In this document: in pieces, positions 5,923 to 17,483 of the stretch
How the letters are laid out: each line of letters begins with the position of its first letter
How positions within the stretch are numbered: position 1 is the stretch's first letter
Source: Candidatus Rokuibacteriota bacterium
GTDB lineage: Bacteria; Methylomirabilota; Methylomirabilia; Rokubacteriales; CSP1-6
Direction of reading: 5' to 3'
NCBI GenBank assembly: GCA_005887895.1
Contig: VBPC01000157.1
Coordinates: 1 to 61,132, forward strand
Length of the DNA: 61,132 nt
The notes under the pieces: generated by a model
Told to the model about the DNA's origin: nothing
Databases searched by the model: none
What the model saw: the letters and a program-made list of their open reading frames with translations, nothing else
Position numbers and translations under genes: made by a program

Positions 5923-6990
5923 GTGCCTGTCCGCATCCTCGTGACCGGCGCCGGGACCGGGCTCGGCAACAACCTGATCCGCAGCCTGCGAGCGGCGGAC
6001 GAGTCGTTCGTCGTGCTGGGCTGTCACGACGACCGGTTCGACCTCAAGAAGTCGGCGGCCGACCGGCACTACCTGCTGCCCTCCCCCGGCGATCGCGCCT
6101 TCCCGCAGCGCCTGCGCGGCCTGATCACGAGCGCGCGCGTGGATCTCGTGATCCCGACGTCGGATCGCGACGTGCGCGCGATCGCGCGGCAGCGCGCGCG
6201 CCTCGGCCGGCGGCTCTTCCTGCCGAGCGCACGGACGATCGAGCTCGGCCAGGACAAGTACACGCTGAGCCGGCGGCTGCGCGCGCGCGGCGTGCCGGCG
6301 CCGGCCACCTACGCCGTCCGCGACCTGCGCTCGGTCGCCGCGATCATGCGTCGCTTGCCCGGCCGGCGCGTCTGGTGCCGCGTGCGCCGGGGCAGCGGCG
6401 CATTCGGCGCGGCGGCCGTGCGAACCGCGGGGCAGGCGCGCGCCTGGATCGCGTACTGGTCGACCATGCGCGACGTGCGCGTCCGCGACTTCACGCTCGG
6501 CGAATATCTGCCGGGGCGCGACTTCGCGTGCCAGATGCTCTGGGACCGTGGCCGTCTCGTCCTCGCCAAGACGTTCGAGCGTCTCAGCTACGAGGGCGGC
6601 CGCGGACGCGCCGGCGGGGTCTCGTCGGTCGCCGCGCTGGCCAAGTCGGTGGTGGAGCCACGGGTCGTCGACGTCTGTGCCGCCGCGGTGCGCGCGCTCG
6701 ATCGCCGGCTGTCGGGCCCCTGCTGCCTCGACCTCAAGGAGAGCGCCGCGGGGGTGCCGTGCGTGACCGAGATCAACGTGGGCCGCTTCAGCCTGTCGAC
6801 GGCCCTCTACGATCTCGTCGGCAAGCACAACATGGCCGGCACGTACGTGCGCCTGGCGCTCGGCGAGCCGCCGGGCGTCGACGAGGTGTACGACGCCGCG
6901 CCCGATCATTACTTGATCCGGGACGTCGACACCGTGCCGGCCGTGGTGCACGCCGACGAGCTGTTCGACGGCATCATCGATCTTCGGTAG
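5923..6990 (+). CDS. ATP-grasp fold protein (CarB/PylC-like)
   Basis: N-terminal ILVTGAGTGLG, DLVIPTSD, DKY, GSGAFGA, EYLPGRD, TEINVGRF. Confidence 0.82.
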   Translation: MPVRILVTGAGTGLGNNLIRSLRAADESFVVLGCHDDRFDLKKSAADRHYLLPSPGDRAFPQRLRGLITSARVDLVIPTSDRDVRAIARQRARLGRRLFLPSARTIELGQDKYTLSRRLRARGVPAPATYAVRDLRSVAAIMRRLPGRRVWCRVRRGSGAFGAAAVRTAGQARAWIAYWSTMRDVRVRDFTLGEYLPGRDFACQMLWDRGRLVLAKTFERLSYEGGRGRAGGVSSVAALAKSVVEPRVVDVCAAAVRALDRRLSGPCCLDLKESAAGVPCVTEINVGRFSLSTALYDLVGKHNMAGTYVRLALGEPPGVDEVYDAAPDHYLIRDVDTVPAVVHADELFDGIIDLR

Positions 6991-7070
6991 CACCGACGGA
7001 AGGGGGGACAGCACCGCCAGGACGCAGGCTCCGGGGTCCGACACTCACACTTGGTCACAGGGAGGATGCG

Positions 7071-7262
7071 ATGCCGAGGCCACCGAAAGCGGGCGAGACT
7101 TATAGCGCCGTCATCAAGGTGAAGGGACCGGTCAGCTCCGCGGCGTACCGGCGATTCCGCAGCGCCGCGAAGGCTGTCTCGAAGGGCAACGCGAGACCGA
7201 AGGAGTCGTTCCGTCGCGTCAAGGCGAAGCGGAGCGCGGGAAGGCGTCGCCGCCGGCGGTGA
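7071..7262 (+). CDS. small, very basic hypothetical protein (63 aa)
   Basis: GGAGG RBS at 7061-7065; 22 of 63 residues are K/R; its stop overlaps the next start (GTGA). Confidence 0.55.
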   Translation: MPRPPKAGETYSAVIKVKGPVSSAAYRRFRSAAKAVSKGNARPKESFRRVKAKRSAGRRRRRR

Positions 7263-7453
7263 GGAGAAAGCCGCCAGCATCGCCGCGGTCTGCCGACACG
7301 ATCCGATCGATCACCGTGCGATCGGTCGGCGACCGCGGCGATCTGGAGGCGTTCCAGCTGGAGATCCGGCGGCTGGCGCGCGAGCACGGCCTCGAGGTCG
7401 TCGACGTGCGCCTCGAGCCGGCGCGCCGCCCGCGGGCGCGCCGCTCAGACTGA
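7259..7453 (+). CDS. small hypothetical protein (64 aa)
   Basis: Translationally coupled GTG start; amphipathic core DLEAFQLEIRRLAREHGLEVVDV. Confidence 0.5.
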   Translation: MRRKPPASPRSADTIRSITVRSVGDRGDLEAFQLEIRRLAREHGLEVVDVRLEPARRPRARRSD

Positions 7454-10400
7454 TTCGAGCAGCTCGGCGTCGCTCCGTCCGGTCCAGCCCGTCATGTCCG
7501 TAGCCGCGAAGATCGCGCGGGCCGCCGCCAGGTGGGCGGCGGCCGCGTGACCATCACCGACCTGGTGCTTCACGCGGGCCAGGTCGACGTGACATTGCCC
7601 CACCAGCGGTTGCATGCCGAGCCCTTCGGCCAGCTTCAGCGCCTCCGCCAGCGCCGCGGCGGACGTGACGACGTCGCCCTGGCGGGTGGCGGCGGCCCCG
7701 GCGACGCGCGAGGCTCGCGCCTCGTATCCGCGCTCGCCGTGCTCGCGCGCGAGCGCAAGGGCGCGCGCGGCCAGCACCGCCGCCTCGCTGACCTGGCCCG
7801 CCGCCAGGCAGGCGGCGGCGTGGTTGCCCACCAGGAGCGACAAGCCGCCCACCAGACGCATCGCCGAAGCGCGCTCCACCGCGCGTTCCGCCAGCGCGCC
7901 GCCGTCGGCCTCACGGCCGGCGCGGGCGTAGGCCAGGGCCAGGGCCGAGGCGACGCGCGGGAACCACAGGGGGATGTTCCACTCGCGGATCAGCGCCAGC
8001 GCCGGCTCCAGCACCGAGATGGCGCGCGCGGCGTCACCACGGCCCAGCCAGGCGACCCCCAGCCCGGCGTAGGCCACCGTGCGGCTCAGCGGCTGATCCG
8101 CCGTTTCCGCGATCGCGACGGCTTCGCCGGCGCGCTCCATCGCCTGCCGGAAGTCGCCGAGCGCGACCAGCGCCCACACCAGGCACGTCCGCGAGTGCAC
8201 CGACGGTAGCTGGGGCAGCCCGAACCGCTCGCGTGACTGCTCGCCGACGAGCGCCTCGACGTTGGCACGGAAGAAGTCCGCGGCCCGGCGGTAGTCGCCG
8301 AGCGAATGGAGCACCTGCCCGAGATAGGTGTTGATCGTGACGCGCAGCGCGACATCATCGAACGTGTCGCGCAGCTCGAGCGCCCGCTGGCCGGCCTCCC
8401 ACGCCTGGGCGTGCGCGCCCATGAAATAGAGCTGGCCGATGCGATACGCGGCCAGCTGGGCCAGACGTCGCGGATCGCCGAGCTCGTCGGCGAGCCGCTC
8501 GGCTTCCCGGACGTACTGGAGGCCGCGCTCCACCTCGCCCAGCGGCAGCAGCGCGGTGCGGAGCTCGAAGCGCAGGTCGATGGCCCGGCCGATCTGCTCC
8601 GACGTCGGCGGCAGCTGGCCGAGCGCCGCCAGCGCCCGCTCGAAGCAGGCGACCGCCTCGCGATGGGCGCCGTCGGCGTAGGCTTTCACGCCCGCCCGGC
8701 GCAGATAGGCAAACGCCTTGTCCCACACGGCTCCGCGGACGGCGTGGTGGGCGGCGTGGTCGAGGTGCTCGCCGATGCGCTCGCCGTAGAGCCGCTCCAG
8801 CTCGTGCAGGATGCGCGCGTGCAGCGAGCTCCGCTCGTCCTCGGCCACGCTGCCGTAGGCGACCTCGTGCGTGAGCGCATGCTTGAACGTGTACTCGGGC
8901 TCGGCGCTGCCGCCGCTCTCGTGCACGAACTCCAGGCCTTCGAGGTGCGCGAGTCCCCGCCGCACCGCCTCGGCGGCCACGCCCGCGATCGCCTGCAGCA
9001 CCGACACCGGAAAGTCCTTGCCGATGACCGCCGCCGAACGAAGCAGTCCGCGCTCGGCGGCCGGGAGCCGGTCGATTCGCGTGAGCAGGACATCCTGGAC
9101 GGTGTCGGGCACGACCGGCTGCTCGATGCCACCGGGATCGCGCATCGCCAGCGCCAGCTCTTCGAGGAAAAACGCGTTGCCCTCGGCCTTGGCGAGGATC
9201 AGGTCGACGAGCGCGTCCGGCACCTCGCGCTCGCCGAGCACGCCGCGCACCACCCGGCGCGCCTCGCCCGCGTCGAGCGGCTGGAGGGCCACCTGGGTGG
9301 CGTACGATTTCTCGATCCACGGCGGCCGATAGCCGGGTCGGTACGTGCAGATGAGGACGATCGCCGTCCCGGCCAGACCGTCCACGAGCGAGTCGAAGAA
9401 TTCCTGGGACGTGGCGTCGATCCAGTGCAGGTCCTCCACGACCAGGACCAGCGGCCGCTGGCGGGCGCGCCGACGCAGCGATTGCCGCAGCACCTCGAAG
9501 ATCCGTGTCTTCAGCGCCTCGTGGTTCTGCACGGCGAGGTCCTGGCTCCCCTCCTTGACGCCGAGCGCGTGCAGGAGGTAGGGCGCGAGCTCACCGCCGT
9601 CGAGTCCGAGCTCCTCGAGGGCGCGCCGGAGCTTTTCGGAGGTCACCTCCGGCGTGTCGCTCTCCGAGAGACGACACGCCGCCCGCAGGAGATCCAGCAC
9701 CGGCAGATAGGGCACGACGCTGCCATAGGACAGGCACTGCGCCTCGAGGCAGTCGACGTCCCGAGCCGCCAGCGTCTGGCGGAACTCGTAGACCAGCCGC
9801 GACTTGCCGATGCCGGCCTCGCCGCCGAGCCCGACGACCTGGCCCTGACCGCGGACCGCCGACGCCAGGCGGCTCTCGAGCAGCTCGAGCTCGTGCTGGC
9901 GGCCGACGAAGGCGACCATCCGGGCCCCGGGCCCGAGGCCCGTCCGCTCGCGGCCGACCAGCAGCTGGGTCGGCGCGCCGCCGGCCGGACCAGCGCCGGG
10001 CGCCAGGCCGAACCGGCGCGTGAGCAGCGGCGCCGTCACCGCGCTCACCGTGATGCCGTCGAGCGGCGCCCGCTCGACCAGCTCGTCGAGCAGCGGCCAC
10101 AGGTCCCGGCGCTCGTCCATGTCGAGCTCGACGCCGCCGCTGGCGAGGCTGACCAGCGCCGGCGTGGCGTGCACCCCGAGCTTGACGGCGACCTCGCTGC
10201 GCTTGTCGCGGCGGGCGCGCTCGACGGCCTTGACCATCGCCAGCGCCGCGTGGGCCGCGCGGTCGGCGGCGTCGCCGACGGCGTCGAGCCCGAATGCGGC
10301 CACCAGCCCGATCGGCCCGATGCCCTCCACGCGCCCACCGAACGTCCGGACCTTCTCGACGATCTCCTCGAGCGCGCGCGCCGTTTCCAGCGTCGCCTCC

Positions 10401-11524
10401 GGCCGCGCCGGCGGCACCAGCGCCGCGCGCAGCAGCGCGATGCGCCGACGCTCCCACCGGCGGCCGGAGGCCGGCGCCGGCACGACGCTCGGGCGGGCGG
10501 CCGCCGGCGCCGACGCCGCCGGCGGAGTGCTGACGACCCGCGGGCGCGCCGCCGGCCGCGGCGCCGTCTCGCGCTCGCGCAGCCGGTACCTGTCCATGCG
10601 GGCGCGAAGCGTGTTGCGCGAGATGCCGAGCAGTGCTGCCGTCCGCGAGATGTTCCCGCGCGTCTGGCCCAGCACGTCCACGAGGTGCTGGCGCATCGCA
10701 TCGTCGAGCGAGACGGTCTCCGTCCGCGCCGGCGCGGCGGCCGCGGGGTCCTCGGCGACGCCGAGCGCCTCCGCCGTCAACTCGTCCGAGGAGGATTGCA
10801 GGACCGCCCGCTCGATCACGTTGGACAGCTCGCGGACGTTGCCGGGCCAGGCGTAGGCGCGCAGCGCGGCCACCGCGCCGGGGGCGAGCGTGCGGCGCGC
10901 GACGCCGTAGTCGACGCACACGCGCGCGAGGAAGTGCTCGGCCAGCGCGACGACGTCGTCACCACGCTCACGCAGGGGCGGCAGCATCACGGTCAGCACG
11001 GCGAGCCGGTGGTAGAGGTCCTCGCGGAAGCGCCGCTCGCGCATCGCTGCCCGCAGGTCCTCGTTCGTCGCGGTGAGGATCCACACGTCGATCGGCTCGT
11101 CGCGCGTCGCGCCGAGCCGCCGCACGCTGCGCTCTTCGAGCACCTTGAGCAGCTTCGCCTGGAGCGCCTCGGGCAGGAGCCCGACCTCGTCGAGGAAGAT
11201 CGTGCCCCGGTGGGCCGCCTGGAACAGGCCAGGCTTGGAGCGGCGGGCGTCGGTGAACGCCCCGCGCTCGAAGCCGAACATCTCGGCCTCCAGCAGCGTG
11301 TCGGGGATCGCCGCGCAGTTGACGTCCACGAAGGGGCCGTCCGGGCGAGGGCCGGCGCGATGGATCATCCGCGCGAGCAGCCCCTTGCCGCTGCCGGTCT
11401 CGCCCTGGATGAGGATCGGCGGCAGCCGCCGGACCTCCTGCTGGCGCTCGAGCAGCCGGGCGACCTTGTCGCGGACGGCCCGTATGCCCGGACTGTCCCC
11501 CAGGAGGTCGGTCAACGCCTTCAT
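7445..11524 (-). CDS. sigma54 enhancer-binding protein (AAA+ plus Fis HTH) fused to a degenerate class III cyclase-like domain, a STAND-type P-loop NTPase and TPR-like repeats
   Basis: GETGSGKG, GAFTDA, IFLDEV, FREDLYHRL; HTH GNISRTAALLGISRNTL; second P-loop GEAGIGKS with LVLVVEDLHWID; helical C-terminus; no N-terminal receiver domain. Confidence 0.92.
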   Translation of the reverse strand: MKALTDLLGDSPGIRAVRDKVARLLERQQEVRRLPPILIQGETGSGKGLLARMIHRAGPRPDGPFVDVNCAAIPDTLLEAEMFGFERGAFTDARRSKPGLFQAAHRGTIFLDEVGLLPEALQAKLLKVLEERSVRRLGATRDEPIDVWILTATNEDLRAAMRERRFREDLYHRLAVLTVMLPPLRERGDDVVALAEHFLARVCVDYGVARRTLAPGAVAALRAYAWPGNVRELSNVIERAVLQSSSDELTAEALGVAEDPAAAAPARTETVSLDDAMRQHLVDVLGQTRGNISRTAALLGISRNTLRARMDRYRLRERETAPRPAARPRVVSTPPAASAPAAARPSVVPAPASGRRWERRRIALLRAALVPPARPEATLETARALEEIVEKVRTFGGRVEGIGPIGLVAAFGLDAVGDAADRAAHAALAMVKAVERARRDKRSEVAVKLGVHATPALVSLASGGVELDMDERRDLWPLLDELVERAPLDGITVSAVTAPLLTRRFGLAPGAGPAGGAPTQLLVGRERTGLGPGARMVAFVGRQHELELLESRLASAVRGQGQVVGLGGEAGIGKSRLVYEFRQTLAARDVDCLEAQCLSYGSVVPYLPVLDLLRAACRLSESDTPEVTSEKLRRALEELGLDGGELAPYLLHALGVKEGSQDLAVQNHEALKTRIFEVLRQSLRRRARQRPLVLVVEDLHWIDATSQEFFDSLVDGLAGTAIVLICTYRPGYRPPWIEKSYATQVALQPLDAGEARRVVRGVLGEREVPDALVDLILAKAEGNAFFLEELALAMRDPGGIEQPVVPDTVQDVLLTRIDRLPAAERGLLRSAAVIGKDFPVSVLQAIAGVAAEAVRRGLAHLEGLEFVHESGGSAEPEYTFKHALTHEVAYGSVAEDERSSLHARILHELERLYGERIGEHLDHAAHHAVRGAVWDKAFAYLRRAGVKAYADGAHREAVACFERALAALGQLPPTSEQIGRAIDLRFELRTALLPLGEVERGLQYVREAERLADELGDPRRLAQLAAYRIGQLYFMGAHAQAWEAGQRALELRDTFDDVALRVTINTYLGQVLHSLGDYRRAADFFRANVEALVGEQSRERFGLPQLPSVHSRTCLVWALVALGDFRQAMERAGEAVAIAETADQPLSRTVAYAGLGVAWLGRGDAARAISVLEPALALIREWNIPLWFPRVASALALAYARAGREADGGALAERAVERASAMRLVGGLSLLVGNHAAACLAAGQVSEAAVLAARALALAREHGERGYEARASRVAGAAATRQGDVVTSAAALAEALKLAEGLGMQPLVGQCHVDLARVKHQVGDGHAAAAHLAAARAIFAATDMTGWTGRSDAELLESV

Positions 11525-11566
11525 GCCCCGGCATCTTAACCCTCACCAGCGCTCGCCGGGCGGCTT

Positions 11567-11614
11567 GGTGTTCAAGTGTTGACCACCCCGGGCCGCGTTG
11601 ACCCCCTGACCACC
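11567..11614. promoter_or_regulatory. candidate upstream activator sequence
   Basis: Palindrome GGTGTTCAA-GTG-TTGACCACC (8/9 arm match) at 11567-11587; extra half-sites TTGACC at 11598 and TGACCACC at 11607. Confidence 0.55.
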
Positions 11615-11646
11615 AGCCAAGTACTCGATCTGATGTGGATCTCCTT

Positions 11647-11662
11647 TGGTACCCGGCTTGCG
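11647..11662 (+). promoter_or_regulatory. sigma54 -24/-12 promoter
   Basis: TGGTAC-CCGGC-TTGCG with exact GG-N10-GC spacing, next to a bEBP gene. Confidence 0.75.
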
Positions 11663-11730
11663 TGGGTCAGCGCGCCGTGAGCAATCAGACGATGGGCGAC
11701 GAGAACGTGAGCGCGTCGAGCGAGGCCGAC

Positions 11731-12303
11731 ATGGCCGAGTCGTGGGTGACGCGGTGGTACACGCCGCTCGTCGCGATCGGCGTGGCGCTGCTCATCGTGC
11801 TGGTTCTCGCGCTGGCCATGGTCGAGTTCCTCGTGGCGAACGCGCCCGAGGTGACGGGCCCAGCGGCGTGGACGAAGCCGCTGGCGCGCGTCGACGAGGC
11901 GCTGACCGACGGCGACGTCGCCCAGGCGCTGGCCTGGTGGCGGGAGGCGCGCGTGGCCGCGCTGCGTAGCGGGCAGTGGGAGGCCATGATCGAGGTCGGC
12001 GATGCGTCGCGCCGCCTCGGCGGCCGAAGCGGCTTCCGCCACGACGGCGACGCCCTCGCCCGCCACGCCTACCTGACCGCCCTTGCCCGCGCGCGCGGCC
12101 TGCACTCGGTCGACGGCGTGCTGCGCGCCGCCATCGCGTTCGATGAGCTCGGCGACCGCGACCGCGTCGCGCACGCGATGCACATCGCCGAACGTCAGGC
12201 CCGACGCGACCCCCGCGCGCGGGAGCACGTTCGCGCGGTCGCCGATCGCTGGATGACACAGTCGGTCCGGGGACAACACCCGACTTCGGGAGGACAGCCA
12301 TGA
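11731..12303 (+). CDS. membrane-anchored all-helical hypothetical protein (paralog 1)
   Basis: GAGG RBS 5 nt upstream; one hydrophobic helix (LVAIGVALLIVLVLALAMVEFLV); aligns along its length with the next ORF. Alternative start at 11692; the track start 11635 lies upstream of the promoter. Confidence 0.75.
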   Translation: MAESWVTRWYTPLVAIGVALLIVLVLALAMVEFLVANAPEVTGPAAWTKPLARVDEALTDGDVAQALAWWREARVAALRSGQWEAMIEVGDASRRLGGRSGFRHDGDALARHAYLTALARARGLHSVDGVLRAAIAFDELGDRDRVAHAMHIAERQARRDPRAREHVRAVADRWMTQSVRGQHPTSGGQP

Positions 12304-12767
12304 TCACGGAGACGACGCGCCCACTCGAGCCGTGGACCGCGCACCTGGAGGCGATGGACGTCGCGATCGCCGCCAACAATGCCAGCGCCGCGGTCCTGGC
12401 GTGGCGGCACGCCTATGCCGCCGCGCTCGATCAGCCGGGCTGGCGCGGGCTCGTCGAGGTCGCCGGCGCCGCGCTGCGGATCGGCACGATTCCCGGCTTC
12501 AAGAAGGCCGCCGAATCGCGCGCGCGCGAGAGCTACTGGACTGCGCTGTTCCGCGCGCGCCGGCAGGGCTCGCTCAACGGCGTGCTCGACACGGCCGAGG
12601 CGTTCGGCACCCTGGGCGATCGCGTGATGGTCGAGCAGTGCATCCGCATCGCCGAGCGTCTGGCCGTGCTGACCGGCGATGCCGACGCCGCAGATCGTGT
12701 GCGGGGGCTGGCGGCCGATCTCGCCCAGCGCTACGTCGAGGTGGACCCGACGACGCGGCGGCCGTGA
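12300..12767 (+). CDS. soluble all-helical hypothetical protein (paralog 2)
   Basis: GGAGG RBS and ATGA overlap; shares W...AAL...W..(M/L).EV, AL.RAR, GVL..A.AF..LGDR and IAER with paralog 1. Confidence 0.8.
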   Translation: MITETTRPLEPWTAHLEAMDVAIAANNASAAVLAWRHAYAAALDQPGWRGLVEVAGAALRIGTIPGFKKAAESRARESYWTALFRARRQGSLNGVLDTAEAFGTLGDRVMVEQCIRIAERLAVLTGDADAADRVRGLAADLAQRYVEVDPTTRRP

Positions 12768-12773
12768 GGGGGC

Positions 12774-13239
12774 TCAGCCCTCGGCGGCGATCTTCGGGAA
12801 GGCCTGACGCTGCGCGTGGTCCGCGCACACGATCAGGACGTCGCCCGGTTGCAGCGGCCACCGCCGGCCCCACGGTGACTTCCTCGACCGGAGTCGAGAA
12901 AGTCGCCGACGAGCTTGCGGAGCGCCGGGCTCCTGGACCGGATCGACCTCGATCACGACGAACGGCGTGCGGGTCGCCAGCAGCTCGCGCGCGATGGCGC
13001 GGCCGGCCACCGCCGCCGACGATGATGTGCCGGTTGAGCGCGGCGATGCGTCGTGCCGAGGCCCAACACGATGAGGATCATCGTGAACCCACGGCCGGTG
13101 GTGGAGAGGGGATGGACTTCCATGTAGCCGACCGACGAGATCGGGCTCCAGCCTTCGATGAGCTGGTAGTCGAGTGTGCGAACGCGATCACCCCCACGAG
13201 CAGGATGACGATCTGCAGGAGGCGCTCGCGTGGGCTCAC
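12774..13239 (-). pseudogene. eroded potassium channel (2-TM pore plus TrkA-N/TrkA-C) remnant
   Basis: Fragments across frames: MSPRERLLQIVILLVGVIAF / LDYQLIEGWSPI / SSVGYMEVHPLSTTGRGFTMILIVLG / RIAALNRHIIVGG / GRAIARELLATRTPFVVIEVDP / LQPGDVLIV; only 466 bp remain. Confidence 0.72.
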
Positions 13240-13283
13240 GCGGGCGCGAGGCTAGCGGAAACGGCAGGGGGTCGCCGGTCCGC

Positions 13284-13565
13284 TCAATACCGGCGGTCGC
13301 CTCGCACCGACGGCGGTGTGAGGTCGCGCGCGTGCGGATCCTTCGGCTTCTCGGTGCTGCCGCCGGGGTTCACCGCGCCCCAGCCGAGGTTCCGCATGCA
13401 CGCGTCGTCCACCTTGCCGTTCCGAGCGCAGGCCGCCCAGTCGCGCTGAAAGTCCTGCCGCGTGTAGCTCGCGTCGAGCTTCATCCACTGCCGCTCGTCG
13501 CTCACGCAGCCGCCGAGGGCCGCCGCCGTCACGACCACCGCGAACGTCCCGTCACGCCATTTCAT
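13284..13565 (-). CDS. small putative lipoprotein
   Basis: Signal peptide ending in lipobox LGG-C; pair of Cys in the mature part; TACAAT 8 nt upstream of ATG. Confidence 0.7.
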   Translation of the reverse strand: MKWRDGTFAVVVTAAALGGCVSDERQWMKLDASYTRQDFQRDWAACARNGKVDDACMRNLGWGAVNPGGSTEKPKDPHARDLTPPSVRGDRRY

Positions 13566-13610
13566 TGCGCCGCATTGTACCGGGTGTAAGGTCAGAAAAG
13601 GAACCCCGCT

Positions 13611-14315
13611 ATGAGTGACCGCTGGGCAGGCGAGGTGTGGGTCGGACTCCTCCAGGTGCGCGAGCGGTTGCTCGCCATCGTCCCCGGCCTGCTGGTCATG
13701 TTTACCCTCGTGATCCTCGGGCTGATCACCGCCTGGGTCGCGCGGGTCGCGGTGTCCCGTCTCGGCCGCGCCGTGGGAATCGACCAGGTCTTCGAGCGCT
13801 GGGGCGTGGCGCCCTCGCTACGTCGTTCCGGCGTCGTCCGCCCCGCGTCCGACGTGCTCGGTCTCATCTGCTTCTGGGCGATCTTCATCCTGTTCGCCAG
13901 CGCGGCCGTCGACGGGCTCGCCGTGCCGGGCGCACCGCTGGCGACGGCGCTGGTGGTGGCGTTCCTGCCGCCGCTCTTCACCGCTGCGCTCATCCTCATC
14001 GTCGGCTGGCTCGCCGCGAACTTCCTCAGCCAGGGCGCCCTGATTGCCGCCGTCAACGCGCGAATGCCGGAGGCGCGGCTCATCGCGCGCGGCGTCTACT
14101 GGGCCGTCCTGCTCTTTGCGGTGGCGACCGCGCTGACCCATCTCGGCATCGGCAAGGAGATGGTGCTCGTCGCATTCGGCGTCACCTTCGGCGGCGTCGT
14201 GCTCGCGCTGGCGCTGGCCTTCGGGCTCGGCGGTCGCAGCATCGCCCGCCACATCCTCGAGCGCCGTCTGCGCGCCGAGTCGCCGCCGCCGCAGGAGCGC
14301 ATAAGTCAGTTGTAG
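13611..14315 (+). CDS. CmpX-like conserved TM-helix membrane protein (MscS-associated TM_helix type)
   Basis: Multiple TM segments; FLPPLFTAALILIVGW, ALTHLGIG, LALAFGLGGR. Confidence 0.75.
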   Translation: MSDRWAGEVWVGLLQVRERLLAIVPGLLVMFTLVILGLITAWVARVAVSRLGRAVGIDQVFERWGVAPSLRRSGVVRPASDVLGLICFWAIFILFASAAVDGLAVPGAPLATALVVAFLPPLFTAALILIVGWLAANFLSQGALIAAVNARMPEARLIARGVYWAVLLFAVATALTHLGIGKEMVLVAFGVTFGGVVLALALAFGLGGRSIARHILERRLRAESPPPQERISQL

Positions 14316-14317
14316 AT

Positions 14318-14627
14318 GGGGGGCCACGAACGGGCCCCCCAAACCCCCCCGACGTTCGGAGCGCCCCGGCACAGCCGTGGCGCTCCTCTAACCCCCGACG
14401 TTCGGAGCGCCCCGGCACAGCCGTGGCGCTCGATGTATTACATAGGGGCCCCGACATGGCCCCCAAACCCCCAACGTTCGGAGCGCCCCGGCAGAGCCGT
14501 GGCGCTCCTCTATACCCCCGGAGGTTCGAAATGCCCCCGTCGAAATGCCCCCGAATGACGAGGGTCGTCACGGCTCCGCCGTGACGACCCGAGCGATGGG
14601 GGTCTGGAGGCCATGTCGGAGCCCCCA
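14318..14627. repeat. cluster of two-hairpin REP/BIME-like elements: + copies 14318-14388, 14392-14431 (half), 14445-14510; - copy 14560-14627
   Basis: GGGGGCC-loop-GGCCCCC hairpin, C-rich linker, CG(T/C)TCG, then a hairpin with a CGGC-N3-GCCG core; lies between convergent genes. Confidence 0.88.
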
Positions 14628-14630
14628 GGT

Positions 14631-15641
14631 TCAATGGTCGGGCGGGAAGAGCACGTAGCCGATGCCGGTGCGCTCCAGCCATACGCGAGCCAGTTCGTCG
14701 GCGTGGTAGCGGCGCGCGACGCCGCCCGCGCTCGCCGCCGCCGGATCGTTCACCAGCACCTCGTCGCCGTCGACGCCCGTCAGCACCAGCAGATGGCCGG
14801 GCGTCTCGGCGACGGCGGCGCCGCTCAGCTCGCCCTTCGCGTAGCGGACGGAGGCGATCACCGGCAGGCCCTGCTCGAGGCACCACGTCGCCGCCGCCCA
14901 GTCGGGGAATCGCAACAGGTAGCCGGCCACGCCGTGACGGCCGGCGGCGACGATCGCGGCCGGCCATATACCGTAGAGATCGGTGCCCGGGTGGAACATC
15001 TCCGCGGCGAGCGCGAGCGTCGGCGCCGGCCGGCGCCAGTAGTCGAGCACCATCGCCACGCACGTCGGCGAGCAGATGCGGCGCCCGAGCGCGGGATCGA
15101 CCTCCATCTGGCTCAGCGGCGGCACGGCCAGCTGCACCCCGCGCGCGGCGACGAGGCCGCGTCGAGACGGCGGCGGCGCAGCACTCGCCGAGAGGCTCAG
15201 CATCCGCGGCGCGGCGACGATCGCGTCCGGCGCCGCCGCCGGGCGCAGACGCGCACGCACGCGCACGGCTTCGAACGGCGTCGGCGAACGAAACACGTCG
15301 ATGTCGACGGCGAGGGGCGCCGAAGACGGGAGCGGCTCGAACGCGTCCGGACCCAGCGATGCGCCGGCAATCCACGGCGTCCAGGCGCCGCCGACGCGCG
15401 CCGCGACCTCGAGGCGCAGGGTGTACGACGCGTCGGTGAGCGCGCTGAACGACGGCACGAGGTGCGTCGCGCCGGCGACCGCCCACGCGGGCGTCTCGAG
15501 GATCACGTCCTTCCCCTCGACGCGGACGGCCGTGCCGGCGGTGCCGGCGGCGTCGACGCCGCGGCGGCAGGAGGGCGGGATCGCGGCGGCCAGGCGATCG
15601 ACCGGCAGGCCCCAGGCGAGGACCGACAGCCCGCTGGTCAC
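14631..15641 (-). CDS. peptidase C39-like family protein
   Basis: SQ...ICSPTCVAMVLDYW (Cys), GHLLVL (His), VLVNDP (Asp); GTG start at 15641 inferred because the track extension overlaps the divergent promoter. Confidence 0.82.
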   Translation of the reverse strand: MTSGLSVLAWGLPVDRLAAAIPPSCRRGVDAAGTAGTAVRVEGKDVILETPAWAVAGATHLVPSFSALTDASYTLRLEVAARVGGAWTPWIAGASLGPDAFEPLPSSAPLAVDIDVFRSPTPFEAVRVRARLRPAAAPDAIVAAPRMLSLSASAAPPPSRRGLVAARGVQLAVPPLSQMEVDPALGRRICSPTCVAMVLDYWRRPAPTLALAAEMFHPGTDLYGIWPAAIVAAGRHGVAGYLLRFPDWAAATWCLEQGLPVIASVRYAKGELSGAAVAETPGHLLVLTGVDGDEVLVNDPAAASAGGVARRYHADELARVWLERTGIGYVLFPPDH

Positions 15642-15739
15642 GTGCGCACCGGCGAGCGTTTCCCCTGAACACGGCAAAGAAGTTCCCTGCCCATCGCAGT
15701 CCCGGACGCGAACTCTGCGCCGGGTTTCACCCTCCCCGG

Positions 15740-15755
15740 CGGCATGTCGCTTGCA
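15740..15755 (+). promoter_or_regulatory. sigma54 -24/-12 promoter
   Basis: CGGCAT-GTCGC-TTGCA with exact GG-N10-GC spacing, 58 nt upstream of a strong RBS-ATG. Confidence 0.65.
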
Positions 15756-15813
15756 GCCCGAGTCGCGCCAAGTTCGTCCGGACTCGGCGTGCCGACACGG
15801 GAAAGGAGCGTTC

Positions 15814-16005
15814 ATGGCGACCTTCGGGAAATGTGTTTGGGATGGCTGCACCCGTCATGCGGAAAAAGAGGCGACCGGTGCCTGTCGCGCGCATCACGTG
15901 CTGATGCGGGACGCGCGATGCCAGAAGTGTCAGAGCGCGCTCACCAGTCGACGCGAGCTGGAATCTCGCGCCTGTCGTCGCTGCTCCTCCGCGCGCGCCG
16001 CCTGA
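15814..16005 (+). CDS. 63-aa Cys/His-rich double zinc-finger-like protein
   Basis: [11 protein letters not shown]; CX4C-X11-CX2HH followed by CX2C-X14-CX2C. Confidence 0.7.
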   Translation: MATFGKCVWDGCTRHAEKEATGACRAHHVLMRDARCQKCQSALTSRRELESRACRRCSSARAA

Positions 16006-16017
16006 CTCGATGGCGCG

Positions 16018-16245
16018 ATGTGCATGATCCGTCCCGCCAAACCGGCCGTGGCACCGACGTTGCACCCGGACGTCGGCATGCCGGACGAGCCGACTCCTCC
16101 CGAAGACGCCGCCCATCCCGCCGTGGTGCACCAGTTCACGGTGCTGCGCGGCATGGCCGTGGCGGTCGTGATCGAGACGCGTGACTGGTACCTGGGGTTG
16201 CTTCAGGCCGCGCTCGCCCGCGTTCGTCTGGAAGGACACAACTGA
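16018..16245 (+). CDS. possible small hypothetical protein
   Basis: Short ORF right after the zinc-finger gene; no clear RBS; start uncertain (16018 or 16078). Confidence 0.3.
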   Translation: MCMIRPAKPAVAPTLHPDVGMPDEPTPPEDAAHPAVVHQFTVLRGMAVAVVIETRDWYLGLLQAALARVRLEGHN

Positions 16246-16266
16246 GGGACTGACCCGGATCGGGGG

Positions 16267-16295
16267 CCGCGAGCGGACACGTCGTCCGCTCGCGG
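16267..16295. terminator. perfect 12-bp-stem hairpin between convergent units
   Basis: CCGCGAGCGGAC-ACGTC-GTCCGCTCGCGG followed by a pyrimidine-rich tract; no long U-run. Confidence 0.4.
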
Positions 16296-16559
16296 GACTC
16301 CCCTTTCTTCCATGCGCGGGATTGGGTACCGCGCGCTCCGGCGTGCGCCGGAGCATTCAATGACTCGAGACGGCGCCGATCGTGGCTGCTAGCGGGCCTC
16401 GACCGACGCGGCCCTCAGGTCCGGTGGCGTATTTTCCATCCGCACCCCCTTGTTGGCGGTTGCGCGTCACGACGGGACGGGATCCGCGTCCCATCACGTC
16501 CTCTCTACGCCTGCCCGGGGCCGCGGTCAAGGCCCCTGCGAACTCGCACGTGCCGTAAT

Positions 16560-17483
16560 TCACGATCCACGCAGCCGCGGATCGAGCACGTCGCGGAGCG
16601 CGTCGCCGAGCATGTTGAAGCCGAATACCGCGAGCGAGATCGCAGCGCCGGGCCAGATCGCCATCCACGGCGCGCGGAGCATGTAGGTGCGGCCGGAACC
16701 CGACAGCATGCCGCCCCACGAGGGATGCGGCGGCGGCACGCCGAAGCCGAGGAACGAGAGCGCCGACTCCGCCAGGATCACCGCGCCGAGGCCGATGGTG
16801 GCGAGGATGATGATGGTCGCGGTGACGTTCGGCAGCAGGTGGCGCACGATGATGCGGGCGTGTCCGCAGCCCATGGCGCGCGCCGCCTCCACGTACGTCT
16901 GCTGCATCGCCGTCAGCGTGGCGCCGCGGATCACCCGCGAGTTCGTGGCGGCCAGCAATAGCGCCAGCGAGAGGACGACGTTGAGCAGGCCCGGCCCGAG
17001 GACCGCCATCACCGACAGGATGATGATCAGGTAGGGGAACGACAGCCAGGCGTCGACCACCCGCTGCACGATCAGGTCCCAGGCGCCGCCGAAGTAGGCG
17101 CTGGAGACGCCGACGGCGGTGGCGGCGAGCACGGCCAGCGTGACCGTGAGGAAGCCGACCGAGATCGACACGCGCGCCCCGTACACGATCCGGCTCCACA
17201 TGTCGCGGCTGAGGTTGTCGGTGCCGAGCCAGTGGGCCGCGCTCGGGGCCTTCATGCGCGCGCCGCGGATCGAGTCGTCGTAGCCATAGGGCGCGATCCG
17301 CTCGGCGAACACCGCCATCACCAGCATGGCGCCGACGATCACCGCCCCCATCGCCCCCAGCGGCTTGCGCCGCGCAAACTTCCCCACCGTCGTGATCCAC
17401 CGGATGCCCACCGTCGACCGGGCATGTTCGAGCGCGGGCTTTGCCCGCGCCATCGGACCCTCGATCCCGACTCGCGTATTCAC
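16560..17483 (-). CDS. peptide/nickel-type ABC permease (DppC-like)
   Basis: HWLGTDNLSRDMWSRIVYGARVS, YVEAARAMG, HLLPNV, ESALSFLGFG; start could be 17453. Confidence 0.92.
   Translation of the reverse strand: MNTRVGIEGPMARAKPALEHARSTVGIRWITTVGKFARRKPLGAMGAVIVGAMLVMAVFAERIAPYGYDDSIRGARMKAPSAAHWLGTDNLSRDMWSRIVYGARVSISVGFLTVTLAVLAATAVGVSSAYFGGAWDLIVQRVVDAWLSFPYLIIILSVMAVLGPGLLNVVLSLALLLAATNSRVIRGATLTAMQQTYVEAARAMGCGHARIIVRHLLPNVTATIIILATIGLGAVILAESALSFLGFGVPPPHPSWGGMLSGSGRTYMLRAPWMAIWPGAAISLAVFGFNMLGDALRDVLDPRLRGS

Follow-up and report, generated by a model that had tools for sequence, protein, structure and literature searches.

A putative sigma-54 switch in Candidatus Rokuibacteriota that joins an enhancer-binding activator core to a STAND NTPase and repeat module

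A contig of Candidatus Rokuibacteriota (VBPC01000157.1, assembly GCA_005887895.1; its 61,132 nucleotides are the whole stretch analysed and are called the window here) encodes a sigma-54 activator of unusual composition, in which the core of a bacterial enhancer-binding protein (bEBP) is fused to a pseudo-cyclase domain, a STAND NTPase and tetratricopeptide repeats (TPRs). Two small paralogous genes, here termed par1 and par2, diverge from it. Comparison with related loci shows that the activator travels with its own candidate enhancer, promoter and output genes. We consider it moderately probable that the protein is a one-component sigma-54 switch, that is, a STAND protein with a complete bEBP core, made of an AAA+ domain and a helix-turn-helix (HTH), as its N-terminal effector. 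No study addressing a STAND protein that uses a bEBP core in this way was found in the literature searched, which agrees with an initial annotation of this DNA that knew of no functional work on the arrangement. In the one eLife paper where “STAND NTPase” and “sigma-54” occur together, NtrC is mentioned only in passing. The architecture is visible in automatic database domain annotation, yet unexamined.

The activator consists, in order, of an AAA+ core, a Fis-type HTH, a Pro/Ala linker, the pseudo-cyclase, the STAND NTPase and the TPRs (Table 1). Pfam places Sigma54_activat at amino acids (aa) 13–179 (E 4e-58), AAA_lid_14 at aa 185–254 and HTH_8 (PF02954) at aa 278–313 (E 7e-11). The PF00158 score of 196 bits, against a cut-off of 20.2, identifies the AAA+ domain as that of a bEBP, and NCBIfam assigns aa 4–315 to the usual bEBP models. 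A phmmer search of the PDB with the N-terminal 330 residues gave FlrC as the best match (E 4e-64), followed by NtrC1, NifA, ZraR and PspF (~1e-53), so that matches to named bEBP structures range from 1e-53 to 4e-64. REDLYHRL, GETGSGKG, FLDEV and WPGNVREL are all present and kept in the family. On the grounds of sequence and comparison, this part of the protein is shown to be an apparently competent bEBP core. The opening AAA+ domain and the Fis HTH behind it had been recognized in the initial annotation, and the Pfam boundaries agree. Since the AAA+ domain begins at residue 13, the activator has no N-terminal regulatory domain; because the protein opens with this core, any possible regulatory part must lie C-terminal to the HTH.

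The sigma-54 contact loop reads GAFTDA (11246–11263), and by comparison it is an ordinary, activity-compatible variant of GAFTGA. Among the matches listed, GAFTDA occurs in 119 of 120 close homologues and in 116 of 150 distant family members, 17 of which have GAFTGA. A metagenome scan for FG[FH]E[RK]GAFTDA returned 120 loci, ~115 of them ordinary bEBPs of 330–730 aa with N-terminal domains. A survey of D. vulgaris bEBPs places GAFTDA among the variants expected to keep activity, and DVU2106 of that organism carries it and has assigned sigma-54 targets (PMC4641369). The ~115 ordinary bEBPs and DVU2106 rule out GAFTDA both as a signature of the family and as a mark of inactivity; the loop pointed out in the initial annotation is present where it was placed and is not special.

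Beyond the HTH, the initial annotation had seen a degenerate cyclase-like domain, a second P-loop NTPase with GEAGIGKS and EDLHW, and TPR-like repeats, and all three are recovered by profile and structure comparison. The NCBIfam family TIGR03903 (kinase/cyclase/ATPase/TPR fusions) aligns with aa 385–1311 over profile positions 322–1260 (E 2e-82); its score of 278 bits is well under the family cut-off of 706, so the activator is not a member. An AlphaFold model of aa 340–960 was built from a 60-sequence alignment (mean predicted local distance difference test, pLDDT, 85) and compared with the PDB by Foldseek. The first ~185 modelled residues match the class III cyclase catalytic domains of RhoGC, CyaB and Rv1625c with template modelling (TM) scores of 0.71–0.76, and the family profile weakly reaches class III cyclases (AC9, E 7e-4; 2w01, E 0.023). 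In the alignment to 2w01, the first metal-binding Asp (SDLRGFT) stands opposite LRAAL and the second (GDG) opposite G-p-i-G, and both positions are non-Asp in the family consensus. Because both metal-binding residues are replaced, the domain is a pseudo-cyclase and not a member enzyme of class III; instead of catalysing a reaction, it probably acts as a dimerisation or nucleotide-binding relay.

The following NTPase is matched by Pfam AAA_16 at aa 539–718 (E 6e-27), with a weak, sub-threshold NACHT match, and its Walker A (GEAGIGKS) and Walker B (VVEDLHW) are kept across the family. In both ATPases of the activator, Walker A and B are therefore intact and conserved. Foldseek matches for residues ~543–891 are Apaf-1 (E 1.5e-9), CED-4, MalT (8bob_C, TM 0.62 by target), the archaeal STAND-TPR protein 6mfv and the plant NLRs ZAR1 and NRC2. 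The protein has the tripartite layout of STAND proteins, with the bEBP core (aa 1–316) as effector, then the NTPase, then the repeats (~aa 892–1359). The repeat region is the least conserved part of the activator; TPR_12 and TPR_MalT match it at aa 962–1090, both weakly and below Pfam cut-offs, and the TIGR03903 alignment extends through it to aa 1311.

The fusion is not confined to the window. More than 120 full-length activator homologues with 53–71% identity to the window protein were found in metagenomes, where they are labelled “sigma 54-interacting transcriptional regulator”, “NtrC family response regulator / TPR repeat protein” or “hypothetical protein”; the taxa, where sources give names, are Rokubacteria/Rokuibacteriota, Methylomirabilota or Binatia. 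An HMMER search of 50%-identity cluster representatives yielded at least 150 clusters, with E still at 1e-194 for the last match listed, and 123 of the 150 listed representatives are full-length with an N-terminal AAA+ domain. Most of these clusters are colinear over residues 1–1200 at 38–54% identity, which rules out an artefact of assembly or gene calling. In a scan of genome representatives, the cyclase-STAND-TPR cassette was confirmed at 535 loci, and among the best 80 of them a sigma-54 core is fused to it in only four: L006 and L007 from Rokubacteria, L008 from an unclassified source and L076, which is gammaproteobacterial and apparently frameshifted. From these comparisons, the fusion is evidently real, old and diversified, yet phylogenetically concentrated.

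Two loci considered as further fusions, L029 (3717–10021) and L026, proved to encode the two parts separately, an ordinary bEBP gene lying ~1.3–1.7 kb upstream of the cyclase-STAND-TPR gene; in L029 one gene stands between them. They come from one Acidobacteria and one Methylomirabilota metagenome-assembled genome. Such a pair could be the unfused counterpart of the fusion, or a coincidence.

Conservation of the gap between the activator and par1 was assessed in 12 distinct loci obtained by three retrieval routes (the window itself, WIN, and L001, L002, L003, L006, L007, L008, L150, L206, L208, L209 and L211), in which activator identity to the window is 45–71%. All 12 have a GG-N10-GC promoter on the opposite strand, 119–137 nt from the activator start. 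TGG[CT]A[CT]-N5-TTGC is exact in 10 of them; the -24 element is TGGATC in L206 and the -12 element is GTGC in L208. The promoter, AT-rich and activator-site blocks are kept amid otherwise diverged sequence. In the 61 kb of the window, TGGYAY-N5-TTGC is expected 0.17 times and occurs twice; one occurrence is the exact TGGTAC-N5-TTGC reported in the initial annotation. The palindrome and repeated half-sites of that annotation are likewise present. The distal candidate activator site lies 60–80 bp upstream of the -24 element; a palindrome scan allowing at most three mismatches gave 3 matches on both strands, against 0.2 expected in the window, and found no copies elsewhere in the 61 kb. A degenerate copy forms the second site, and the half-site TGACCACC is repeated at 11580 and 11607. 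A TGGTCA-N4-GTCA block at the second site is conserved in the window, L001, L206, L208 and L006, and the palindrome GGTGGTCA-N5-TGAACACC is found in all nine closer loci. The three remaining loci (L007, L008 and L150) have a different activator-site sequence together with a different recognition helix (RNT[LI]RYRI vs RNTLRAR[MI]). That helix class tracks site class fits a pairing of HTH and site, a correspondence that is confounded by phylogeny.

Between the activator sites and the promoter, an AT-rich block, AAATCA-N4-GTTG/A, can be aligned in the 12 loci (e.g., AATCAAATAGTTG in L001). It resembles the consensus of integration host factor (IHF), from which we infer a putative IHF site. A scan of 11400–13700 for sigma-70 promoters and terminators gave nothing useful, and no Rfam families were found in 6500–17000.

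A TAAGAT(G) element situated 7–12 nt upstream of the activator start (11527–11545) is kept in nearly all loci, in any reading frame, and in L002, L003, L209 and L211 the TTGAAC half of the palindrome precedes it by 18–19 nt. TTGAAC/TAAGAT looks like a -35/-10 pair, which bound activator would occlude, with autoregulation and a short or absent leader as the consequence. Because the activator sites overlap its own promoter region, the activator probably autoregulates, as PspF does.

The promoter reads into par1 and par2, whose frames overlap at ATGA, the par2 start lying across the par1 stop. They are the two uncharacterised paralogs of the initial annotation, with 41% identity over 119 aa (E 9e-20), and neither has a family in Pfam, NCBIfam or PADLOC. 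For par1, the start at 11635 in the open reading frame (ORF) list is unlikely; ATG 11722 is favoured because it follows a GAGG Shine-Dalgarno sequence and agrees with the N-termini of homologues. The N-terminal segment of par1 has a mean Kyte-Doolittle hydropathy of 2.9 over 19 aa, and the equivalents in L007 and L008 have an N-terminus like a cleavable signal peptide; par2 has no hydrophobic segment. The AlphaFold model of par2 (pLDDT 91.5) contains seven helices in a TPR-like repeat, and its fold matches are generic TPR and designed-repeat proteins only, with TM of 0.57 or lower, so that a specific function drawn from the fold was dropped. The possibility that the outputs are decoys of the activator's own TPRs was also set aside, there being no detectable homology (hhalign E 0.39). 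Target genes were catalogued across the loci, as proposed in the initial annotation: 11 of the 12 have a par-family gene directly downstream of the promoter, including loci whose activator is only 45% identical. Nine loci have two copies, L002 and L008 have one, and in L150 none is driven.

Homologues number 190 for par1, all “hypothetical” and those listed mostly 51–77% identical, and 281 for par2, of which the 120 listed are 79–97% identical. Conservation of par2 is thus well above that of par1 and of the activator, whose closest relatives are at ~70%. It suggests strong constraint from several interaction surfaces.

Table 1. Positions of the activator, its domains, the elements of the divergent gap and the output genes in the window
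Feature	Position	Strand	Basis
Sigma-54 activator gene, 1359 aa, fused to pseudo-cyclase, STAND NTPase and TPRs	7445..11524	-	ORF, Pfam/NCBIfam domains, homologues
bEBP AAA+ core, aa 13-254 (Walker A GETGSGKG, GAFTDA, Walker B FLDEV, WPGNVREL)	10763..11488	-	Pfam, phmmer
Fis-type HTH (HTH_8), aa 278-313	10586..10693	-	Pfam PF02954; nearly invariant in family
Pro/Ala-rich linker, aa 317-355	10460-10576	-	Poorly conserved; low pLDDT
Cyclase-homology domain, catalytically degenerate, ~aa 356-525	9950..10459	-	Profile matches, Foldseek
STAND nucleotide-binding oligomerisation module with helical and winged-helix subdomains, ~aa 539-891	8852..9910	-	Pfam, Foldseek, motifs
C-terminal TPR region, presumed sensor, ~aa 892-1359	7448..8851	-	Weak Pfam TPRs; TIGR03903 alignment
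Distal candidate activator site, imperfect palindrome GGTGTTCAAGTGTTGACCACC (GGTGTTCAA-GTG-TTGACCACC)	11567..11587	.	Motif scan, conservation
Second, degenerate candidate activator site, GTTGACC and TGACCACC half-sites	11594..11614	.	Motif scan, alignment
AT-richer stretch between activator sites and promoter, IHF-like (WATCAA-N4-TTR) in relatives	11617..11638	.	Alignment
Sigma-54 promoter TGGTACCCGGCTTGC, TGGTAC-N5-TTGC (GG 11648-49, GC 11660-61)	11647..11661	+	Motif scan, conservation
par1, 193 aa, N-terminal hydrophobic anchor and helical-repeat domain	11722 (or 11692)..12303	+	ORF, homologues, hydropathy
par2, 155 aa, cytoplasmic 7-helix TPR-like repeat protein	12300..12767	+	AlphaFold, homologues

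In STAND proteins such as MalT, Apaf-1 and NLRs, ligand-dependent oligomerisation switches on an effector at the N- or C-terminus; bEBPs, for their part, have to form rings to be active. In the one-component switch that we favour, the HTH would bind the two TGGTCA-type sites ahead of the divergent -24/-12 promoter, with an IHF-like bend in the DNA between, and the AAA+ ring would remodel the sigma-54 holoenzyme to start transcription of par1-par2, giving one membrane-anchored and one cytoplasmic TPR-like protein. The ~40-residue Pro/Ala linker would tether the AAA+ core to the pseudo-cyclase, the oligomerisation domain and the TPRs. A ligand or partner on the TPR region may then let the STAND module exchange nucleotide and oligomerise, which would raise the local concentration of tethered AAA+ domains and lead to an active ring on the enhancer. 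With MalT, Apaf-1, NLRs and bEBPs as models, we infer that the STAND module may gate assembly of the AAA+ ring. A bolder version, put forward tentatively, is that the STAND ring formed on ligand binding templates the sigma-54 AAA+ ring on the enhancer, with two ATPase machines acting in one polypeptide. If true, this would amount to a bacterial “transcriptional inflammasome” logic, which is not described for sigma-54.

The same parts could also work with the opposite sign, the resting STAND/TPR module holding apart or occluding the AAA+ domain until a signal releases it. The architecture argues for such autoinhibition as well as for an oligomerisation switch: without further domains, an AAA+-HTH core such as PspF has constitutive activity, the repeat domains of STAND proteins keep these proteins in an inhibited state, and bEBPs are most commonly regulated by restraint of an AAA+ core that is active by itself, as exerted by the receiver domains of NtrC1 and DctD or the GAF domain of NorR. 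A long, flexible and poorly conserved Pro/Ala linker is nevertheless an awkward geometry for a specific clamp, and we regard this arrangement as rather unlikely. A partner switch of the Psp type, in which par1 reports the state of the envelope, par2 binds the TPR or AAA+ part of the activator as feedback inhibitor or co-activator and the STAND/TPR module serves mainly for docking, would account for the pspF-pspA layout (two activator sites and an IHF-like site before a divergent sigma-54 promoter, and an activator that lacks an N-terminal domain), for the exported or anchored location of one paralog and the cytoplasmic location of the other, and for the higher conservation of par2 relative to the activator, as expected of a protein with several binding partners. 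It sits poorly with par1 and par2 being of generic TPR-like fold, not PspA-like and with no Pfam match, with their want of homology to the activator TPRs, and with the single par copy in L002 and L008; we judge it improbable.

Bacterial STAND NTPases with TPR sensors are often defence proteins, and the STAND fold here matches NLRs. Both points speak for an Avs/NLR-type anti-phage or conflict system, in which the STAND module would recognize a phage protein and the response would be transcriptional. PADLOC, however, gives generic RtcR/PspF AAA+ models (aa 19–315) and none for the STAND part or the outputs, which rejects a known anti-phage STAND system (Avs and similar) by its curated models. 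The locus further has stable chromosomal synteny and housekeeping-type neighbours across relatives, and its outputs, small proteins of helical repeats, are neither nucleases nor pore-formers. A role in defence is accordingly very improbable.

Several observations weigh against the one-component switch itself. Ring stoichiometries may be mismatched, since bEBPs form hexamers or heptamers and STAND proteins form polymers or assemblies of 4 to 8. The 61-kb window contains no gene for an RpoN-box protein, so that sigma-54 in this genome is deduced only from the three conserved -24/-12 promoters of the locus. The promoter in L150 drives an unrelated lipoprotein gene. The close loci all belong to one lineage, and part of the conservation could be due to shared ancestry. 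The recurrence of divergent promoters and palindromes, proposed as a test in the initial annotation, holds for the 12 aligned and the nine closer loci, respectively, and breaks down in L103 and L166 (45% identity), where no sigma-54 promoter occurs in the 720 and 1680 nt available upstream.

Each part of this system has relatives among known regulators. PspF of E. coli (pspF-pspABCDE) likewise has an AAA+ domain from the start, a terminal HTH and a divergent sigma-54 target with two activator sites and IHF between; it is ~325 aa long and controlled in trans by PspA, whereas the present activator continues for ~1000 residues beyond the HTH and its target genes lack homology to PspA/IM30, their 7-helix TPR-like fold differing from the PspA coiled coil. 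MalT/LAL regulators place a STAND NTPase and a TPR-like sensor over a transcription effector, with ligand- and ATP-dependent oligomerisation in MalT, but the C-terminal LuxR HTH of MalT recruits sigma-70 polymerase, in contrast to an N-terminal, ATP-driven AAA+ remodeller of sigma-54 polymerase. As the effector here is itself an AAA+ protein, two different ATPase modules stand in one chain. In actinomycetes, AfsR-type SARP-NOD-TPR proteins have an N-terminal transcription-activation and DNA-binding effector followed by a STAND NTPase and TPRs. Unlike the present activator, AfsR uses an OmpR-type winged helix and BTAD at sigma-70-type promoters and has no cyclase-homology or AAA+ domain. The C-terminal 930 residues share their cyclase-STAND-TPR cassette with TIGR03903 fusions and mycobacterial cyclase-AAA_16-TPR-LuxR proteins, which carry an N-terminal Ser/Thr kinase or a C-terminal LuxR HTH instead of a sigma-54 core. 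The initial annotation assumed that bEBPs usually carry N-terminal sensors; the activator indeed has none, and regulatory domains C-terminal to AAA+ have a precedent in LevR-type PRD-containing bEBPs, which make up 48 of 490 clostridial EBPs (PMC6615313). The LevR type (Firmicutes) differs in being controlled by phosphotransferase system (PTS) phosphorylation of PRD/EII domains, in its N-terminal DNA-binding domain and in having no STAND/TPR part. The locus layout is that of pspF-pspA, the protein logic that of MalT/LAL/AfsR and the C-terminal cassette that of TIGR03903-type fusions.

Known control of bEBPs runs through N-terminal receiver, PAS, GAF or V4R domains, C-terminal PRDs or partner proteins. 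Control by a STAND module would be another logic beside these, and would tie sigma-54 transcription to the signalling principle of NLRs and MalT. With at least 150 clusters in soil metagenomes, this would be a major unstudied class of regulators in Rokubacteria/Methylomirabilota-type bacteria, which have no cultured model. With its three genes and its defined promoter, IHF-like site and enhancer, the unit is compact and directly testable in E. coli, and a tightly off sigma-54 switch gated by a ligand could be made from it.

Close relatives share synteny beyond this unit: an Opp-type peptide ABC transporter, a Peptidase_C39_2 protein, a small lipoprotein-like gene and sometimes an MscS-like membrane protein are followed by the par genes, the activator, two tiny basic proteins and an ATP-grasp-like gene. 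In L006 the ATP-grasp genes are absent, and L007 and L008 lack all flanking neighbours; these losses rule out the whole neighbourhood as one obligatory unit. Since neighbours are lost yet the activator, promoter and par genes are retained, only that unit is counted as the module. More speculatively, because an Opp-type importer, a C39-like peptidase, an ATP-grasp gene and tiny genes (two with sigma-54 promoters) flank the locus in close relatives, the ligand might be an imported peptide and the TPR sensor an RRNPP-like receptor.

On the activator's 3' side (5923–7453, + strand), a 355-aa ATP-grasp-like gene with a weak PylC-like N-terminal match is convergent with the activator, and two tiny, very basic genes occupy 7071..7262 (63 aa, ending RRRRRR) and 7259..7453 (64 aa, overlapping the activator stop). 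This set is kept in L001, L002, L003, L206, L209 and L211 and missing in L006–L008; it could be a small peptide-modification set. Two further sigma-54-type promoters lie between the C39-like peptidase and OppC-like permease genes (15740–16245, + strand). CGGCATGTCGCTTGCA (15740–15755) precedes a Cys-rich 63-aa gene with CxxC pairs (15814..16005), and TGGCACCGACGTTGCA (16049–16064) precedes a 55-aa gene (16078..16245). L001, L006 and L206 keep these two promoters with their genes, L002, L003, L209 and L211 have none of them, and no copy of the activator palindrome is present near them in the window. They may belong to the regulon of this activator, at a distance of 4.2–4.5 kb, or to that of another bEBP. 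Between par2 and a convergent 93-aa lipoprotein-like gene, 516 nt (12768–13283) are devoid of a credible gene, an Rfam match or a terminator-like site; in L001, 25 nt separate par2 from this gene.

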